In this document: positions 14,778 through 57,306 of the stretch, piece after piece
Layout of the letters: the number at the start of each line of letters is the position of its first letter
Numbering within the stretch: the stretch's first letter is position 1
Assembly (NCBI RefSeq): GCF_964355755.1
Contig: NC_092670.1
Span: 15,486,795-15,550,794 of the forward strand
DNA from: Antedon mediterranea
Taxonomy: Eukaryota > Animalia > Echinodermata
Length of the DNA: 64,000 bases
Direction of reading: 5' to 3'
The notes under the pieces: model-generated
What the model saw: only the letters and a program-made list of their open reading frames with translations
Told to the model about the DNA's origin: nothing
The model's database searches: none
Made by a program: the position numbers and the translations under genes

Positions 14778-17700
14778 TTAATAAAGCGCCTGTGAGTTAC
14801 TGGTTCTAGGACGTATAATCTTCTCCTTATTTTTTGATATGAGATCTAATATTCCAAGCTGAAAGATAAATGAAACCAATAACAGATGAAATAAAATTAT
14901 ATAATGTTTACATTATCCATAGGAAATTCAAGTACAGCCAATCAAATCATAGCAAATTCAAGTGCATACAATCAAATCATAACAAATCCAAGTACATCCA
15001 ATCAAATCATAGCAAATTCAAGTGCAGTCAATCAAATCATAACAAATTCAAGTACAGCCAATCAAATCATAACAAATCCAAGTACATCCAATCAAATCAT
15101 AACAAATTCAAGTGCAGTCAATCAAATCATAACAAATTCAAGTACAGCCAATCAAATCATAACAAATCCAAGTACATCCAATCAAATCATAACAAATTCA
15201 AGTGCAGTCAATCAAATTATAACAAATCCAAGTACATCCAATCAAATCATAGCAAATTCAAGTACAGTCAATCAAATCATAGCAAATTCAAGTACATCCA
15301 ATCAAATCATAGCAAATTCAAGTGCAGTCAATCAAATCATAACAAATTCAAGTGCAACCAATCAAATCATAGCAAATTCAAGTTCAGCTAAACCCATCCT
15401 AAAACTAAGTACAGCTTTTAGTGTGCTCTTAATGATACATTTTTGCCCTTTAAATGTATTATATTCAAGAGTTATCAAATTCAATAGCCTTAAGTGTGTT
15501 ACTACATTGTATTATATAGAGTTTATTCTGTTTGAGAATTAACTTACATAACTATTTCTTAGTTCTGCACAAATAAGTCTGAGATTAACAAATTCCTTCT
15601 CGTCTATCTCCTTAACACTTTGCCTGTAGTCGCCCTGAAATTATAAAGTTTAGTAAACTGTGAAAAAGAGTGATTTTGGGTTTAGTCGATTGTGGACTGT
15701 GCTGTATCTGATTGGTCAATTCAGTTATCATTTTTTTATATTACTGGCGAGTACACAAAAAACCTTCACTTTATTCTAGCTAAAATCATAAACCATACAT
15801 ACCACATGAGGATATTTCGCAACTTTTGAAACCAACTTCGCTCGTGTAATAAAGTACCGTGAAATTTGATCTAAGTACGCCCCAGCTTCTCCCTCAACCT
15901 GACGCACTTCCGACAACGTATCCTCCTAAAGAAAAACAATTTCACAGTCGGGTTACTGACTGAAATAATTTCACTCTGCTGTTCTTTAACACCCGAGGTA
16001 GGTTTCCGGCCTGAATAGATACAGTTATAGATTGACACACCTTCCATTAAATCTTCTCTACTGCAGTAACTGCAATGAAAACATTATAAATGAGTTCTTT
16101 CCTACCTGGATAGATACACCAAAGTTATTTCCATCTTCTATCCTTGGAATTAAGAGCTGTATCCACATTTTTATTTGGTTACACCTCTCAATCAAGTCCA
16201 TAATGTGTGGCTTCATTAGGTTTATCAACTTCATAATATGCTCATTGCAGGGCACACCACCTTCTGGAAAGGTCATAACCAGGGAACCTGTATAATTACA
16301 AAAGTAAACATTTAAGTTTTTGAAATATATTTCTTTATTCAACAGTATTTTTTTATTACAAAAATATTTATTTTTCTTACCAGAATTTTCTTCCTCAATG
16401 CGTTTCCTTTTACTGAGCTGTTGGTAAAAAAGAAAAACATTTAAACTTCCCTTATACATGAATTTTAATTAATTTAGACATTTATTATAAAAAATAATAC
16501 ATGGATTTGCTATAATATGCTTTTATTTTTAAATTACAAAGGAATAGACAGCTCTAAAACTTGTCCTTGTCCTCCCTCCCCTTCTTGTTTCCCTCCTACT
16601 TTAAACTAAAACCAGACAATGTTTAAACCAAGTGCTTTAGGATAGAAAAGTATAATATCTTTGGTAATATTTTTCACAATACACATCTATAATATAAATA
16701 TCATTAATAATCACTTCCCATGACAAAATTTAAATGTGGTATTGTACATATTTTAGGTTAAATATTAATAGTGTTCTACAATGACCTATTGTAAACTAAT
16801 ATACATTAATTAATACTAGTCTATATATGATAAACTGTTGATGGTTTACAGATTCCTATCACAAGGAAGGCTTAAGCTCTGTCTAGACTATCAAACTACT
16901 GTAGTTTGACAAAAAAATGTGATGTGCCCATATATGGACATGATGATGTCATATCACTACCTTATTTAGGAATATCACTACCATATTATATCACTATAAT
17001 ATTACTACATACATTTTTGTCAAAAACTAGTTTGATGGTGTAGACAGAGCTTTAGAAAACTTACCGATTCATGACTGTTTAGAACGACTGGATCTGGCAC
17101 CGGTAAGTTTAATTTCACTGTCATGTTGGGCATGTTTTTTAAGTCAAACAATTCAGACTATAAACAAAAAAATGTTTAGAAATGATTATTATTTTGTTTT
17201 TAAATGTTTAATTTGAGCAATGACTATATATGTATATCCTCTTTATTGAGAAATAAATTTATTAAAAATCTAATTGCAATATAAATTACTTATAAAAATG
17301 TATTTAAATTTATAGTTTTTAACATTGGGGTGTGCGTCATAGGGCCCTGCAATACGTTCTAACAATTTGAATGATTTCAGAATTATTATTACACTTTATA
17401 TCTATTTTCACCACTTCATTTTGATCTTTTAATGTATTTTGTATGTATGTATAATTGCCAAAGAAAAGTCAAATTTCGAGTTATGGATGAATAAAGAATA
17501 TTGGTATTAGCTTAGAAACAGAGTGCCAGACATTCTAATCTTACCTTCAATAGGTCATTTAACTCAATAACAGTTCTGGGAAAATCAGTTTTAATTATCT
17601 TCTTTGCCTTAAAAAAAAAAATTTAAAGCAATATCGTATAAATGTATTATTTTGAATATTACGCTTCATGAATACACTGAAAGATGGGGCCGTATCAATT

Positions 17701-44423: not shown

Positions 44424-45487
44424 TGTAAAGCATTTAAGCACACTGATGTTCTTGTAAGTACAGTACAGTACAGTATTAATTCGTTGAATGCGTGGTCTGG
44501 TAGTAGTTTGATTAAAAAAACAAAAACAAGCAATACGGAAGTGTACGTCAACGATTGTTGTGGTATTAGAGTTCACTCAGAATGACGGAATTAATACCGG
44601 TAGGTCACGTGATATATGAACTTGATCGATCACTTTTAATTAATATTAATCTATAAACAATCGGTCAATTATACCTGATTGTACCCGGCCTTAAATGAAT
44701 GCATGTTTGGCCGTCTGCGTTTAAAAAAGTCATCTTGGAGAAAGAGAGAAGTTTTGACGATATGTATAATATTTAAAATATATATTAACTGATATCAACC
44801 TAAAGCTGTCTACACTATCAAACAAGTTTGACAAAAAAGTGTGATGTGCTCAAATAGGGTAGTGCTATGCCCATATATGGGAACATCACATTTGTCACAT
44901 GTGATAGTGTAGACAGAGCTTAGGCCTCACGCTAGATGACTTTGCACAAGCTTTGTACTTTCAACACAATGTCATTGAAAAATATCGAAACTCTGGATTT
45001 TGATGGAATCAACATGTCTAGCCTAAACTCTTCACGAAACAAAACATTGTTTAGAAATGAATGTCCAGTTCGTTTAAAGCATATCCTATACTGTATTATA
45101 TAACCTACTACCTACCTAATTTAGTCCGGGTTGACTAACGCTATCAAATAAAGACGTGTAAATGAGGGGTTCTTGTTTAGATTATAATTATATAATAATA
45201 TAGGCCTATTTAGTTTTGTTTTTCTTTCTGGGGCTGCAGTGACACACATCATGCACAGTCCATAGCTATAAGCAATGTTTTAATAATCAATCATTTTAAG
45301 ACCATTTGTATGTTTACCTCCTCCAGATGGCATATATCACTTTTCTGTTATTGAATAATAAAGTGTATGGATTACGTAATAGTGGTGGCGCCATACCGTA
45401 TTACAATATCTGACGTGTTCGTTTGGTGTTCGTCCACTTGTTGTATCGCGTATGGTTGTACTGTTTGTCGCGCTATCTATGTCAAAC

Positions 45488-48400
45488 ATGGCTTCTCGGT
45501 GTGGTGTTGGGTGGTTTTTAACATCAATTTTTTCAACCTTTTCTATATTATTTATATTTATTGTTCCATTTGTTCAAACAGGTAAGTCATTGTAAATATG
45601 TAGATATTATTTTATGTAATTTCCTAAGCCTAGGCTTACTTTTAGCTACGTCCAAAGTTCAGGAAAGTGGACGGTTGTTGCACAGCAATTATATTTCCCT
45701 TTCGACACGAACCGGTTTGAGCCAGCCAGTTACCGCCTCATTGACCGGTTAGTTGATAGAGAAGGGCGGCTAGGCCCATTCATTCTCTAGAGCCTAGAAA
45801 TAAAATCTAGGGTTAGGCCTGTTGTATTGCTTATTTTGGTTTTCACTCTGATTTAATTTCACCATAAAATAATAAGAAAATAAGAAGCAATCTGACAGTG
45901 TTTTCTAAAATTTGATTTGAAATAGAAACAATAAAAATGATTTGATATTTTTATTTTATTGCTGAGAAATTATGTTTCTTCGATCAAAAAGTGGCAAAAA
46001 AGTGCCTGCTGTTGTAAAAGTTCACATTTATTATTCCTATTCAAGAGTATGTTTAATCTTATCTTAAGTGTTTATGTAAATACCGTTTAGATTTAATCAG
46101 GGAGTAAACTCCATGGATTTAATACTAAAAAATATAATATTTTGATAAGGACAAACATTTAATATTATAATGTATGATTTCTATTTTTCAGACTCAAGTA
46201 TTACTTATGAATATGTAACCTGTGGCTCCGTTATTAAATTAATGAATACCAGACACAATGTACGACTACACTCACATGATATTAAATATGGTTCTGGTAG
46301 TGGACAGCAGGTAATAATATTCATATTCCCAGTCATTCCTTCCCCACATGTTCTTTGTGTTGAATATATTCAAATTCACCCCATCATCATTAAATGTACT
46401 GTATACAGTACATTGTCACATTTTATATCATGGTTTTGTTGTCAATAAATAATCAGTGTGCAAGAACTCACCTTACAGCATTTTTTTATAGAAATGATTC
46501 CATCCATTCAAATTGAATAAATTTCTTGATTATAAGCTACATATTTGACAAAAAAAGTTTGATATGCCCAAATATGGTAGTGATATGATGTCCATATATT
46601 ATATGGACAGGCACATCACATTTCATCACATAAAGAGTAAACAGAGCTTAAACGTTGGAAGTTAACTATGTAAAATGTTTTAACTTTTCTTTGTAGTCTG
46701 TAACAGCAGTAGAAGCAACTGATGATAAAAATAGTTATTGGCAAGTGAAAGCAAAACAAGGGAAGACATGCACTAGAGGGTGAGTATGCAGCTTGCCTAC
46801 TCTTGTGTTTAAGCACTGTTCACATTCTGGGGTAAAAGTACTGCCCACTCTTGTGTTTAAGCACTCACATCCTGGGGTAAAAGTACTGCTCCATGACATG
46901 TGTGTATATTTAAGTACTGTTCCCTTGGGCATCTGGGTAAAAGCACTGCTGTTCTTGTGTATCTAAGCACTATTTGCCCTTGACTATTTAACACTGCCTT
47001 TCCATGGATAAAGGCCCTGCCATCTGGGTGTTCAGATACTGCCAATCTTAGGCGATAATTTTATTGACTAGCAACTCATGATGTTGGCCCAAGCTTAGCT
47101 TATACATTTTCAAAGATGTGATGGGGTTATACTAGAATCAATCAATCAACAATTATGTTAATAAATAATATGACTGATTTTTTTATTTACAAATTATTAG
47201 CATTGTTTTTAATTTATTCATAGAACTCCAATTAAATGTGGTCAAACAATTCGACTATTACATGCGGACACACGCAGAAATCTACATAGTCACTTGTTTA
47301 AATCGCCACTGTCAGGGAATCAAGAAGTTAGCTGTTTTGGAGAAAATGGAGATGGAGATGACGGTACTTGTTCTATTCTTATTATTAATATAAGACAGTT
47401 GTTGTTTGTTGTTGTTTTTGTTAGTTTCCAAAAATAATACATATAATTTTCTTAATAAATCATTAAATATTTATAAATACAGTAGTATGATTTACATTCT
47501 CTTCTGTTAACACTTTCTGCTGGTGCCGAAATAAGGAGAAATTCTATGATTATATTAAACACTACATTTTAAAGTTGTTCATATGTTGAAATTATCTACT
47601 ACTGCAGTTACTGCAGTAACTACATTTATCTACAGTAATGTTATAGTGCATGTGGTTATAAGGCAGTCACTTCCAGAAACAGTGATTTTACCCCAAAAAT
47701 GTATTATTGATTTTTAAAAAAATTACAGTATTGCTTAAACAGTTTCAAAATAAACAACGTGTAGTTAGGAAAGTAATGACAATGTTGACATGATCCCTAT
47801 TTATTTAGAGTTCTTAGTTCCAAATTATGCCCCCTTCTACACTGTAATAAAACACATTCATAAGGCCTAAGGTTTTAACATGTTTATTGCAGGGCATGTG
47901 GAAAAAATGAGCCCCTTAACTGAACAGGCTACCCAGCATTTTTTAAACATAATTGTTTGTGTACCAGCAACATATCAATGAATGCCATGCAAAGAGGAAA
48001 TAATATCATTATCTATATGATTACCAGCAGTTTATTATCTTTTAGGAGATTTGTGGGCAGTTACATGTTCAGGATCAAATTGGAAAAGAAATGAACAAGT
48101 TCGTTTAAAACATGTTCTGACTGAAAAGTAAGTATTTTTTTCTGAATATTAATATATATATTTATATTATATTTACTGCTGTTCTGACTGAAAATTAAGC
48201 ATTTTTTCTGCATATTACAGTAATATGTACTTATATTTACTGCTGAAAATGGTACCAAAATAACATAATTTTTGTGTAATATTTTATGCAAACCAAGCCT
48301 CTTAGAAATATTCAACCAATATTAAGCTGTCTATTTGAATAGAATATTTGAAACTCTGAATGGATCAGAAACAAAAGAGTTTGGGACACATCTTAGAATT

Positions 48401-48827
48401 TAGGTGATGACCCTATTGTTCCAAGATAGCACATATCAATAACAAAGTCTGAGTAGCACTTGGCTTGGAATCAATCAAACTTCCCCCTCCTCTTCTTCTC
48501 TCTACCCCTGTCCTCCAATCTCTACCATATCAGTAATTCTAGACCTATGGTTTTGGTAATTTTCATATGGCAAATCATCATGATAGTAATAGCTTGGATC
48601 CAACAATATCAACATCATTATGACATTTATTTTTTCCATTATGTTTCTTTGACACAATGTAAATATTGCTTGTACTTTAAAGGTATTTAACAATAACTGG
48701 TGAGGTATACGGTAGACCAATCCACGGCCAACGAGAGGTCAGCGCACAAGGGTCACCGAACTCAAACACGTATTGGAAAGCAATGGAAGGAGTATATATA
48801 AAACCAAATGAAGATGAAAAATTGTGA
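45488..48827 (+). CDS. SDF2: Stromal cell-derived factor 2 / SDF2L1 orthologue (three MIR domains), 6 exons, 220 aa to the first stop; 239 aa if TGA is read through to TAA 48884
   Basis: Exons 45488-45581, 46192-46310, 46697-46779, 47224-47363, 48046-48127, 48683-48827; 663 nt in frame. Signal peptide, VTCGSVIKLMN..VRLHSHDIKYGSGSGQQSVT, CGQTIRLLH..NLHSH..SPLSGNQEVSCFG, YGRPIHGQREV, WKAMEGVYIKP. Confidence 0.95.
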
Positions 48828-49734
48828 AAGACGGCTGGACAAGCAGACCAAGGAGATTCATCATCGAAGCACGATGAGTTGTAACACCATGTCAATTATT
48901 TATACCAATTTTTGCTATTTATGTTTGTAATACAGTTATCTCTCCTAAAATCATCACAAAAACCTAAAACTGGATTGATCAGTTTTTTGTTAAATGACCG
49001 TCTATTGTCGTGGAACAAAAGCTCACTACTTTCTATCATTCTATTAATCACAAATTACAATGTAAATAATAGGCCTGTTATCAAACATAAATTAGTCAAA
49101 ATTGTCATTTTTAATGGTAGCTTGTCCAAAAGTTTAATTTTGTCTATTTTATTTAAATCTTTATTAATATTATTTTTTGTTCTCATTATTAGAGGAACAG
49201 TAATTGTATTATTTATTTTATTCAAATATTATTTTATTATGTAACATTGAATACAAATAGAGTATAATTAAATAAATTACAATACAGTATAAGCATAAAC
49301 TGGGTAAAACGAATCTATATACTGTACTACTATAAAGGCTTAATGCATATAAATCTATAGGTTAACATATGTCATTTTGCCTATTATTTTATTATTTTTA
49401 CACAATAGACTATTGTTTTTACATAAACATGTTCTTTTTAGAATTAGCTAAAGATTACTAAATGTTTGTGTTAAATATTAAAGGATCATCTAAAAAATGT
49501 TGACATGGTCCCTAATTTCTTTTAAATCTCTAAAATATTAAACTGTGGTACTATATTGTAATAATTGTGTTTAATAATTTCTTTTTATATTTTGATATTT
49601 TATCTTATTTTTTAACATTCCTATTGGTATCAAACCTTTAATTGTATAATGCTTTAATGTTTTGTTTACTATGTATCACATAGTTTAGCAAGTATAGAAA
49701 TGCTGTAGTTAGCTGTCCTTAAAGCAGGTACCCA

Positions 49735-49960
49735 TACATCATTACTACCCAAAATACATCATTACTACCCAAAATACATCATTACTACCCAGAATACATC
49801 ATTACTACCCAGAATACATCATTTCACTACACAGAATGCATAATTTCTACCCAGAATACATAATTTTACTACACAGAATACATCAGTTTACTACACAAAA
49901 TACATAATTTCTACCAAGAATACATCATTTTTACCAAGAATACATCATTACTACCCAAAA
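49735..49960. repeat. ~20-bp minisatellite
   Basis: AATACATCATTACTACCCAR units. Confidence 0.9.
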
Positions 49961-52336: not shown

Positions 52337-55300
52337 ATGATGTACTGTGCTGCAACTGGACTAATTACAATTTTCCTATTTTCTGCAATAAAATCTGGTG
52401 GTTGTTCTAAGGGTGACCATCATCCAGTGTATCGTACATGCTTACATTATTGTATTAAGGAGAACTGCAGCATGCAGGTAGATGTAGAAAAGTTTGAAGC
52501 AAGCAGGGCCTGGTACCTGAATGCGCTACAGTGGCACTGCCAGGATGAATGCAGATATGATTGTATGTGGGTAACAGTTGAATATTATGATCACAACAAA
52601 ATTCCATGTCCTCAGTTTCACGGCAAGGTATTCTTTTATCTGTATTGTTCTATTATAAAGTAATATTATGTTGTGTGTTTTTACTTTATCATTTTTTATC
52701 AATTTTCAATTTCAGCTTCATTCTATTTCGTTATCACATCATTCATCGGTTTTGCAAGGGATTTTTTTTCTCAAAATTTTGGGATTTGCAAAGAGCATTT
52801 GGGATGCACATAGAAGTGCTATGGGGGATTTGTAAAAAAGGGTGGGTGTGAGGTAAAATTCAATTCAAATTTTAAACATTTATTAACAGAAAATATGTAT
52901 TATTTGTGGAAACTAATAAACAAGTAAACAAACAACAAAGTAAAACAAAATACAAAATGGGAATGATGAACAACCTTTGGTTTGTCTTTACAGGCATTTA
53001 AGACATAAAAATACTATTAGAAAAAAAAATCAACTGTGTATCTTTCTAGTCAAGTATTACGGTATAGGAAATAGCACTGTTTCTTAAAAGACTTTGATTT
53101 TTCTTTTAGTGGCCTTTTCAGCGAATATTCGGAATCCAAGAACTAGCGTCCGTTGTCTTCTCAATATGCCATGCTGTATTGCATCTCTATTTCTGGTGGC
53201 AATTCAGATTAAAAGTTCCATCTGCAGCACCAATGTATAGTACATGGCAGATATATTCTATGGTGAGTACAGTAAAACCCCTATTAAGGGGACACCTTTG
53301 AGACCAACAAAAGTGTGTCCTTGTAATGGTGACTTAGGAATTGGGGTTTGCCATAGTGATACTTCCTCATGGTCGTTTCATAGGAAAATGTCCCTTTAAT
53401 GAGGGTGTCCTATGAATAGGGGTGTCCCCTGATTAAGGGTATCTTTTGAATAGAGATGTCCCCTGAACAAGGGGCATCCTCTGAATAGGGGTATCACTAA
53501 ATAAGGGGCATCCTCTGAATAGGGGTATCCCTGAATAAGGGGCCTCCCCTGAATAGGGGTATCCCTGAATAAGGGGCATCCCCTGAATAGGGGTATCCCT
53601 GAATAAGGGGCATCCTCTGAATAGGGGTATCCCTGAATAAGGGGCATCCCTGAATAAGGGGCATCCCCTGAATAGGGGTATCCCTGAATAAGGGGCATCC
53701 CCTGAATAGGGGTATCCCTGAATAAGGGGCATCCTCTGAATAGGGGTATCCCTGAATAGGGGTATCCCTGAATAAGGGTTTCCACTGTATGTATACATTG
53801 CTCTGGTTCACTTACACAGCCTGGGCCTAGTTCAGACCAATGTATGTACTATCAAGAAACTTGATAGTTTGTTTGAATAACCTTTGTCGTATTCGATTTA
53901 GACTTTCACCGTTGAGTACAGTTTTTCCGTTGAGTACTTCTTTAACGGAGTATTTTGAGCGTTGAGATTGTTCTTAACGAAACAGCTTTCGTTGTCAACG
54001 TTTTCTATTCGAATGACTTTCTGTTGAGCACAAATTTACAATTCGAATACAAAAAGTACTCAACGAATCTTTACGTTGACAACGAAAGTTCCCAATCGAA
54101 TACGGCAATTCACAACTAGAAAGCCACTCAGAGAGTGCATACCTCCGCCTACTGTAAAATTCTCCTACAAAAGATTTCTCCGGTAAAAATATATATATAT
54201 ATTTGTGTGTGTCTTCTTTTGAGTAATCCGGCTAACAAACAAACGCTACCGATTACATATACCTCCTTGGCGGAGGTAAATAAGTCTATTTTTGCAATAG
54301 CTATACCAGCAGACTATACGTTTTCATGAAAATCGATAGATAGTGTCGCAAAATGTTGGTTTATCTTATCTTCAATATGCTGAATTATTAGATAGCATTC
54401 TCTCTGTAGCTCTTAATTTTGCCCCAAGTGTTTGCTCATTTTCTGAGTTTTTATTATTTTATCGTTATTATTTGTGTTTTGTCTATAGATTAGTATGAAT
54501 GCTTGGCTTTGGTCTACAGTTTTTCACACTAGAGATTTAATTTGGACAGAGGTGAGAGTTCTATTCAAAAAATTTCAAGTTTATTGGTAGGAAAGTTATT
54601 TGACAGTTTCAACTAACTACATCATTTATTTTCACTTTCAATCAAATTTGTCCATCTTGTGATAAAAAAAAATTGAATGCCATACACTTCTTTATAGACT
54701 TGACAATAACTAGATACTTACAAGTAAATGTAGGTTTTTTTATGTAGTAAAACTATAAAACCAGACTGTTTATCCCAGAGTGGTTTAAGAGTTGAACCCA
54801 CACCTTTGGTATTCTGCAGGTCACCAAGCCTCAGTGCCACTTATTGACCTCTCCCTCATCTTGTCCATGAACTTCTTATTTTCAGAGAATGGATTATTTC
54901 TGTGCAACATCATTAGTGCTAGCTAGTCTATTAGCCCACTGTATACGGTAAGTATATAGTTTTTAATTATTTTAAAACTCCGTGTCATTGAAGAATATGG
55001 CCACTGAAATTGTCCCATTACCACAATTTTCCTAAATTCTAAAAATTATTTAGAAAATGAGTGTCCAGTTTGTTGTAGAAGAGTTACTGTAGTTTATTTT
55101 TTGATTTTTAAGCTCTGTCCACACTATCAAACTAGTTGATGTGTGTGATGTGCACAAATATGGTACTCAGTAGTGATATGCCCACTTTTTTTCATAAAGT
55201 TTGATAGTGTAGACAGAGCTTTATGTTGATTTGATCACATTTACTTGGTCACTTTACTATTTTTTTTTATAATTATAGTGTTCTTGGTTGGTATGGTGGT

Positions 55301-57306
55301 ATTCTTCACTCTAAAATCACATGTTTGTGTATCGTTGTCATGATTACATTGTTTTCTGCACATGTGTACTATCTCTCGTTTGTAAAGTTTGATTATGGCT
55401 ACAATATGAAAGTAAATGTTGCTGTGGGTAAGTTAAATGTTTCATGTCATTTTTTCATTTTAAAGATGTATTGTCCCCCTGAAACAAATAATTCTTAACA
55501 AATTTTTTGTTGAATATTCCATTTTAATGTAACATAATAGTTATCTACTTTGACCAAAAATTGGATCGGAAACAAAAATATACTTACCTGAAAAAATGTA
55601 ATTTAAAGCAAAAAATGGTCAAATTGGCTGCCAGCCAATATATTTTTGGTTGAATTTTAACATTTATTTTGTCATTTTATAAGTAAAAACATTATTTTTT
55701 GGGTTTTTTTTTCTATTGAAGTGATTGATTTTATTAAAACTACAAAATAACCTATTCAAAGTCTGATTTAATTAATCTTCATTTTTTATGTTTTTGAGGG
55801 ACAATACATCTTTAACATTACCATAGATTGTTATAAAGTTTCATTTCAAATTATTCTTATGTCACGTTTTCGAGGTCTAATTTTTACAAGTTCAGTCAGA
55901 ACAATAAACAATAAAACCATGTACATGTATCCCTGCTGCATACATCCAAACATGCGCGTTTTCCATCCACAATTTTTTTAGGGCAAGTTAGATTTGGTTT
56001 ATAAGGGCAATAAGTAAAATATCTGACAAACTGGCCCTGCTGATCACTAAAACAAAACCCAATATTGGTCCATATGTTCATTAACAAAACAATTTGTATT
56101 TGCTGCAATGTTAAAATGGAAATATTTGATTTAAAGTAGATTGGTTAAGATTTTGTACACACTTCAGAATGAGAGTGTTGCTGGAACTAAGATAAAAATA
56201 TATATGTATTATTTTAAAGGTGCTATAAATACTATATGGATTGTGCTGTGGAGTGTAAAAAACATGTCACACCAGCCTTATGTATGGAAGGCCATGGTGA
56301 CCGTAATTGGCACCAGTTTATTATTACTTCTTGAACTTGGTGACTTTGCTCCAATTGGTTGGATTTTCGATGCGCATTCCATATGGCATGGTGCCACAAT
56401 ACCGTTAGTGGTCTTTTGGTATAGGTAAGCATTTTCAGTATTATAGATGGTCTGTGCATAATATATAGATAGACAGTACAAATAGACAGGACAAATAGAC
56501 AGTAAAGACAGACAAATAGATAGAGCACATTCTGTACAGTACATACAGACAGTACATAATAGACAGTATAGACAGGCAGTAAAAATAGACAGTACAAATA
56601 GACAGGACGAATAGACAGGACAAATAGACAGTAAAGACAGACAAATAGATAGAGCACATTCTGTACAGTACATACAGACAGTACATAATAGACAGTATAG
56701 ACAGGCAGTAAAAATAGACAGTACAAATAGACAGGACAAATAGACAGGACTAATAGACAGGATAAATAGACAGTAAAGACAGACAAATAGATAGAGCACA
56801 TTCTGTACAGTACATACAGACAGTACATAATAGACAGTATAGACAGGCAGTAAAAATAGACAGTATATAGACAAACAGTACATATAGACAGACAGTATAA
56901 TTATGCAGACAGTGCATAGACATCCAGAAAAATTTTTTCAGGACAGTAGACGAAGAAGACGGTAATTTAACAGACCATCAGTTGTTTTTGTCCCGTTTTT
57001 TAGAGAGTTGACTGAAAAAAATTAGAAAATCCTGATTCGTTTCAGCGTCTTCCAAAGCTCTGCTATACTATCAAACTCTATGTTACAAAAAATGTGATGT
57101 CATGCTTATATATGGACATGATGTCATATCACTACCATATTTGGGCATATCGCACTATTTTTGTCAAGCTAGTTTGATAGTGTAGACAGAGTTTAAAGAT
57201 CTTCAAATATTCCTAATTTTTTTGTTCTTTTCTTTTTTTTAGTTACATTATAGATGACTGCCTTTACATGTATGAGTGTATGATGAAGTTCAAGAAAACT
57301 GTGTAA
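52337..57306 (+). CDS. PGAP3: Post-GPI attachment to proteins factor 3 (Per1 family), 7 coding exons, 328 aa
   Basis: Exons 52337-52627, 53110-53262, 54489-54551, 54886-54947, 55279-55427, 56220-56424, 57243-57306; 987 nt in frame. SKGD..C..C..C, WHCQDECRYDCM, QFHGKWPFQRIFGIQE, NAWLWSTVFHTRD..TERMDYF, FDYGYNMKVNV, LELGDFAP..FDAHSIWH. Probable 5'UTR exon ends at 50919. Confidence 0.96.
53270..53787. mobile_element. Tc1/mariner-type MITE with an internally amplified 16/17-bp minisatellite
   Basis: TA|CAGTAAAACCCCTATTAAGGGGA ... TCCCTGAATAAGGGTTTCCACTG|TA; 53400-53780 consists of CCCTGAATAGGGGTAT / CCCTGAATAAGGGGCAT units. Confidence 0.85.
53884..54108. mobile_element. Small TIR element
   Basis: TTGTCGTATTCGATT...AATCGAATACGGCAA; interior CGTTGAGTAC/GTACTCAACG repeats. 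Confidence 0.65.
54114..54280 (-). mobile_element. Short Helentron/HINE-like element
   Basis: Minus strand begins TTTACCTCCGCCAAGGAGGT and ends GGCGGAGGTATGCACTCTCTGAGTGGCTTTCTAGT (subTIRs plus 3' hairpin). Confidence 0.75.
55464..55811. mobile_element. TTAA-target MITE, Kolobok-like ends
   Basis: TTAA|AGATGTATTGTCCC ... GGGACAATACATCT|TTAA; the AG start fits Kolobok rather than piggyBac (CCY). Confidence 0.75.
56465..56900. repeat. Compound tandem repeat (~125-150-bp units built from ATAGACAG) in the last PGAP3 intron
   Basis: Three copies of AGACAGACAAATAGATAGAGCACATTCTGTACAGTACATACAGACAGTACATAATAGACAG... Confidence 0.9.

Follow-up and report, generated by a model that had tools for sequence, protein, structure and literature searches.

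Why would an SDF2 gene keep an ER-retention signal, HDEL, in frame behind its own stop codon? The question is raised by the crinoid Antedon mediterranea, whose SDF2 gene lies on the forward strand of a 64,000-nt stretch of contig NC_092670.1 (the window, the whole of the DNA analyzed here). The answer that we consider likely is that the UGA is read through, with stimulation by RNA structure, to yield a minor HDEL-tagged SDF2; the structure is a predicted stem, and translation of the tail is inferred.

The gene is a crinoid SDF2: its product shows 100% identity with the A. mediterranea RefSeq model XP_071960001.1, 87% identity with SDF2 of another crinoid, Anneissia japonica, and about 55-70% identity with the proteins of other animals. 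Six exons (Table 1) encode 220 aa up to the TGA, or 239 aa if UGA is read, and all five introns are confirmed by spliced contigs from two runs, X3 (study P1) and X5 (study P2). The RefSeq model begins 12 codons upstream of the likely ATG, with which the Anneissia start aligns; a hydrophobic stretch, signal-peptide-like by appearance, precedes the MIR domain (PF02815, above cut-off). In this pairing of a signal-like N terminus with a MIR β-trefoil, the protein resembles SDF2/SDF2L1. Residues 50-231 match the structures 1T9F (C. elegans, E 2.6e-59) and 3MAL (Arabidopsis, E 2.3e-49), and because these solved chains stop where the 220-aa form stops, without a tag, the 220-aa form is a whole fold. 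Both spliced contigs end inside a short tandem repeat at 49733-49960; these are contig ends and not a mapped mRNA 3' end.

Table 1. Features of the Antedon SDF2 locus, numbered from the first nucleotide of the window.
Feature	Position	Strand	Remarks
SDF2 exon 1, from likely ATG	45488..45581	+	spliced contigs X3, X5; hydrophobic signal-peptide-like segment
SDF2 exon 2, start of MIR domain	46192..46310	+	spliced contigs
SDF2 exon 3	46697..46779	+	spliced contigs
SDF2 exon 4	47224..47363	+	spliced contigs
SDF2 exon 5	48046..48127	+	spliced contigs
SDF2 last exon, coding to first stop (...KPNEDEKL); completes MIR β-trefoil	48683..48824	+	
SDF2 last exon to second stop	48683-48884	+	
First stop UGA, candidate readthrough codon, context UUG-UGA-AAG	48825..48827	+	
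In-frame extension, 18 codons ending in HDEL, then TAA (48882-48884)	48828..48884	+	
Spacer between UGA and predicted stem, 8 nt	48828..48835	+	
Predicted basal stem, 5' arm (9 bp, 2x1 internal loop, 4 bp)	48836..48850	+	
Predicted nested inner helix inside 264-nt loop, about 48911-48935 with 49075-49099	48911..49099	+	
Predicted basal stem, 3' arm, GC-richer island in AU-rich 3'UTR	49115..49128	+	
SDF2 3'UTR in both spliced contigs	48885..49700	+	each contig about 63 nt longer

Is the stop genuine, and what lies behind it? The initial annotation had placed HDEL in frame behind the UGA, and the six-exon reading frame bears this out: the 18 sense codons between TGA and TAA encode KTAGQADQGDSSSKHDEL, and the spliced contig X3 contains this open frame from the TGA to the second stop, which thus exists in mature mRNA. 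Between 48683 and 49700, the X3 contig differs from the window only at 49029 and 49321, both in the 3'UTR; X3 therefore carries the TGA, and since it is spliced RNA the stop is not an assembly error. X5 has 7 differences over the same span, the 6 listed all falling in the 3'UTR and none at the stop, and very likely carries the TGA as well.

The extension stands out from its surroundings. When all six frames of the 64-kb window are cut into segments running from stop to stop, 8,433 in total, only the SDF2 extension ends in HDEL or a PROSITE-type ER motif. Calculated analytically, a given stop would be followed by such an end with a chance of 1-3e-6 for HDEL and of 4-7e-5 for any of the motifs used by the SDF2 family. 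With a GC content of 0.50 and a purine content of 0.65, the 54 nt resemble the exons, and the extension had rightly been described as GC-richer than the UTR: across 823 UTR windows of 54 nt, GC averages 0.23 and never exceeds 0.43, so the compositional break sits at the second stop. By single-sequence composition, the extension looks coding. Two further remarks of the annotation agree with what was found, namely that small introns starting from the GT at 48824 leave the HDEL frame unrestored (the intron scan finds none from this GT that would restore it) and that the context is UGA-A; the UGA-AAG seen here departs from the readthrough consensus UGA-CUA(G), as given in the text available for PMC4359377.

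How old is this stop? Anneissia SDF2 ends in KPNEEESL, at the same residue as the KPNEDEKL of Antedon, and in 13 of 13 named echinoderm species the protein ends 8-11 residues past the last conserved motif. Aligning SDF2 ends puts the other echinoderms within -1 to +2 residues of the Antedon position (protein ends only). In a tree of 42 chosen rows, Antedon and Anneissia pair at 99/98 and 11 echinoderms group at 85/81 (not starred); this tree does not resolve the deep branches, and we therefore propose no sequence in which the tag was gained or lost. Counted from the Anneissia split, the Antedon branch measures 0.046 amino-acid changes per site, and 19 of 184 sites differ between the two mature proteins. 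A much shorter distance is provided by a close relative, for which some 750 compared bases, intronic for the most part, contain 40 differences and 40 gap letters (roughly 5% intron divergence) and whose two listed exon-2 differences are third-position and synonymous only. Because a relative at about 5% intron divergence shows only synonymous listed exon changes, we infer that the neutral distance between Antedon and Anneissia is far above 5% and put it well above 0.2; the literature searched gave no date for the divergence of these two genera.

Could an HDEL codon string last that long by drift? In simulated neutral decay, HDEL is kept in 38-49% of cases at 0.05 substitutions per site, in 3-7% at 0.2, in 0.3-1.3% at 0.35 and in 0.06-0.3% at 0.5, which makes a neutral relic of such persistence unlikely. 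From the comparison of protein ends, the stop looks old rather than a private nonsense allele, and an old stop with an intact tail would therefore imply selection on the tail, hence some translation.

How do other SDF2 proteins end? Among the homologues collected, no end is more frequent than HDEL (101 proteins), and an ER-type motif closes 228 of the 346 that have a recognizable end (many of them near-duplicates) and 99 of the 121 homologues in the first search; spiralian and vertebrate SDF2 mostly end in HDEL-type motifs. Of the 22 exceptions among the 121, 16 are proteins with short tails from echinoderms, hemichordates, amphioxus or anthozoans; the remaining 6 consist of variant motifs, an incomplete sequence, an end that was wrongly modelled and an entry translated beyond its stop. 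Untagged ends are found in all 13 named echinoderm species (five classes), in 3 hemichordates and 3 Branchiostoma species, and also in Ciona savignyi, Priapulus, C. elegans, Oscarella, anthozoans, Capsaspora and Arabidopsis. The tag is patchy in animals: sponges, anthozoans, Priapulus and C. elegans lack it, as does every non-vertebrate deuterostome in the set. That SDF2 is able to function untagged follows from the ends of the sponge, cnidarian, C. elegans and Arabidopsis proteins. Antedon differs from both groups: vertebrate and spiralian SDF2 carry a constitutive tag and sponge, cnidarian, nematode and plant SDF2 carry none, whereas the Antedon tag sits behind a stop. With UGA read, the Antedon tail would be 28 residues, long for the SDF2 family (9 of 228 are as long).

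A tag behind the stop was also sought elsewhere. Of 4 coral loci (3 of them distinct) in which a short tail is followed by UGA, none has one, nor does a further short-tailed locus (UAA), and 3 more loci came without the last exon. In coral SDF2 (loci L048-L051), an additional intron lies just ahead of the last conserved motif and leaves a final coding exon of only about 9 codons. From the close relative of Antedon, 3 runs gave no contig across the last exon, and the contigs of another organism end ahead of the UGA, both in listings from which a filter removes records. Six database SDF2 proteins (P0029, P0151, P0237, P0248, P0250 and P0318) continue past HDEL-type ends via Trp; these are apparently annotation artefacts of gene callers that took TGA as Trp. 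No form with a short tail, W and HDEL occurs among all stored homologues, which include few echinoderm entries from callers of this kind, and no second echinoderm paralogue with HDEL appears in the best 120 of either search (in one of them, the best 120 of 1,718). A metagenome scan for SDF2 gave 65 loci, none recognizably echinoderm-like; one viral scan gave 5 weak matches and the other none, and prokaryote genomes gave 2 weak matches.

What might help a ribosome past a UGA in so weak a context? The initial annotation had pointed to a hairpin at the end of the extension: it does form, but no better than in shuffled sequences (z -1.22, 21/200), and no local hairpin in the first 100-150 nt after the stop rises above shuffles. 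Folding predicts instead a long-range stem, whose basal part comprises 13 bp with an extra 5' base and closes the loop of 264 nt; the inner helix predicted within this loop has 11 perfect bp (48917-48927/49082-49092). Pair probabilities of the basal stem are 0.72-1.0 across three contexts of up to 1,078 nt, with 0.72-0.99 for the nine perfect basal pairs in the 1,078-nt context, and the predicted stem fits the extended 3' stem-loop class (10-14 bp, 7-12 nt after the stop, long loop allowed).

Would random sequence do as well? A 311-nt piece folds at z -3.32, with 0 of 100 shuffles as good, for a fold window whose end was picked once the stem had been seen (2 of 7 windows were scored). When the extension is kept fixed and the UTR is shuffled, equal folding is reached in 1/500 (to 49135) and 5/205 (to 49300), and a helix of at least 9 bp at a 5-12-nt spacer in 17/500 and 15/205, respectively. 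As controls, the 65 metagenome loci supplied 45 distinct SDF2 stops, after 12 loci had been skipped and 8 set aside as duplicates (several of the 45 are close kin); a helix of at least 9 bp is present in 2 of the 45, and one at a probability of at least 0.9 in 0 of 45. Statistical support for the predicted stem is thus moderate (3-7% of shuffles; 0 of 45 control stops); taken alone, the stem would be only suggestive, because the window was chosen post hoc and the duplex of the stem arm against the whole UTR is matched by 22 of 300 shuffles.

The combination of an old stop and a predicted long-range stem 8 nt behind it strengthens the readthrough reading. In the mechanism that we propose, a near-cognate tRNA would decode UGA in a minority of rounds, probably aided by this stem, and the products would be an ER-retrievable 239-aa form ending in HDEL next to the untagged 220-aa form. 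The tagged form would be recycled by the KDEL receptor and could keep part of the DNAJB11/ERdj3 co-chaperone pool in the ER, as mammalian SDF2/SDF2L1 do; the untagged form may depend on partners or leave the ER or be secreted with them. This division of roles is speculative, as is the retention/secretion switch raised in the annotation. Why should the tag matter at all? According to the available text of PMC12661433, DNAJB11, which lacks a retention motif, is almost wholly secreted from mouse kidney cells without SDF2 and SDF2L1, and both of these mouse proteins bear C-terminal retention signals; the secretion of DNAJB11 in their absence indicates that the tag matters in the SDF2 family.

Which known systems does this arrangement recall? 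Readthrough appends the peroxisomal signal PTS1 to LDHBx (Schueren et al., 2014; PMC4359377, available text) and to fungal GAPDH and PGK (as cited in the accessible part of PMC3840789). The Antedon gene has in common with those cases a brief extension that follows a UGA and closes with a C-terminal targeting signal, and it would likewise produce a minor relocated isoform. Unlike the PTS1 cases, the Antedon tag is an HDEL on a protein already in the secretory pathway, calling for retrieval and not import; and unlike LDHB, the stop has the context UGA-AAG and a predicted stem, not UGA-CUAG. On the structural side, the prediction for Drosophila kelch is a stem of 14 bp that carries a 5' bulge, is set off from UGA-AUG by an 8-nt spacer and encloses a 268-nt loop; in VEEV, a stem of this kind stimulated readthrough 10- to 14-fold (Firth et al., 2011; PMC3159437, available sections). 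Antedon shares with kelch the UGA-A context, the 8-nt spacer and the size of the loop (264 vs 268 nt), both stems being predicted, and shares with kelch and the alphaviruses (VEEV, SINV) a UGA with a 13-14-bp stem and an extra 5' base, the Antedon stem coming from single-sequence prediction. Unlike in kelch and the alphaviruses, the Antedon 3' arm lies in the UTR past a second stop and the extension is only 18 codons long. Several points count against the readthrough reading: the weak UGA-A context, the untagged lineages, the tagless corals and the 28-residue tail. Moreover, the genome-wide readthrough estimate is 0 for amphioxus and Nematostella in the available text of PMC5100048, so readthrough is not common in such animals.

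Might the tail be an untranslated remnant? A former HDEL tail, constitutive or read through, could have been cut off, or its readthrough could have lapsed, with decay still pending; this would account for motif, frame and composition without recoding, would sit easily with the weak UGA-A context and with the tolerance of tag loss in many lineages, and would be unexceptional for a recent event, given the 38-49% of simulated relics that retain HDEL at 0.05 substitutions per site. Such a relic, however, presupposes that the stop arose very recently, which fits poorly with the identical end point in Anneissia and with the short proteins of all 13 echinoderm species; it further requires that a tail was gained and then truncated again at the ancestral codon, and by 0.35 substitutions per site no more than about 1% of simulated relics survive. 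We consider it unlikely. Chance is a harder case to make: an ordinary 3'UTR may spell HDEL in frame by coincidence, and this case was picked out of a very large scan, with stem statistics only at the 3-7% level, but a probability of 1e-6 to 7e-5 per stop in a family that mostly ends in such a motif, together with a composition that differs from all 823 UTR windows, renders coincidence very improbable. The annotation itself had named a base error or a recent nonsense allele as alternatives. X3 possibly comes from the same specimen as the genome, and the X5 listing shows 6 of 7 differences, which leaves some room for an assembly error or a private allele; against this stand the TGA in spliced X3, the lack of any listed stop change in X5, which belongs to another study, and the shared end point of Anneissia. 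With these and the decay simulation, both alternatives have become unlikely, and we regard an error or private allele as extremely improbable.

A different possibility is that the tail is translated, by a route other than readthrough: a minor splice form, A-to-I editing (UGA to Trp) or selenocysteine insertion. On paper, 14 GT..AG pairs rejoin the HDEL frame, contigs drop rare variants, and a double-stranded region adjoins the stop in the predicted fold. All of these introns would, however, delete VYIKP, the conserved sequence with which the fold ends; none has an acceptor with the T-rich tract found in the five real introns, and no such joint is among those listed for X3 and X5. As to editing, the A of the stop is unpaired in the predicted fold and has a 5' neighbor G, and ADARs disfavor a 5' G beside the edited A. 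For selenocysteine, a SECIS was sought in the 3'UTR, where Rfam gave 2 unrelated sub-threshold matches and a pattern scan for canonical forms gave 0. Taken together, these routes appear quite unlikely.

Would readthrough of SDF2 be novel? Proteins are known to acquire peroxisomal, nuclear, membrane and prenylation signals by readthrough; if true, the SDF2 case would extend this route, described until now for targeting signals of other kinds, to an ER-retention tag. In the accessible sections of Dunn et al. (PMC3840789), a Drosophila screen sought [KH]DEL in readthrough extensions and reported none, and an Arabidopsis screen, in the available text of PMC9293766, reports no conserved ER-retention signal in extensions. 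Schueren et al. (PMC4359377, available text) deposited, in an external data set, predictions of ER retention for human readthrough extensions, which may bear on novelty. The open literature, with subscription journals mostly uncovered, yielded no precedent for SDF2 readthrough or for a readthrough-added ER-retention signal.

If the readthrough reading is true, it would tie translational recoding to the balance between ER retention and secretion of a chaperone complex, would allow the long-loop stem model to be tested on a cellular gene from a non-insect, and could account for a whole group of untagged SDF2 models in invertebrate deuterostomes whose vertebrate and mollusc relatives are tagged. 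Does the hidden tag go further back? A tentative extension, which we hold to be somewhat doubtful, is that a hidden HDEL is ancient in echinoderms, and perhaps in hemichordates, amphioxus and tunicates, and that vertebrates and spiralians gained constitutive tags via stop loss. If ancient, SDF2 would be the first gene in which ER retention, and with it the retained and secreted shares of ERdj3, is set by stop-codon readthrough, and would represent an intermediate stage, preserved in living animals, on the way to acquiring a C-terminal targeting signal.

The surroundings of the gene offer a few further observations. Its neighbors in the window encode a PA28 C-terminal domain (16061-16468, minus strand) and a Per1-like, PGAP3-type domain (52337-56425, plus strand); human SDF2, PGAP3 and PSME3 are all on chromosome 17, which would mean an old linkage. 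Intron 2 contains a very high-copy short repeat (46544-46640, with a similar stretch near 44800-44900), on which thousands of contigs stack up, from two organisms and with fold-back joints; it looks like a small inverted-repeat element. Finally, run X11, guessed to be DNA of another organism, contains a spliced piece near-identical to SDF2 over 48679-48764, in which exon 5 letters precede the last exon.
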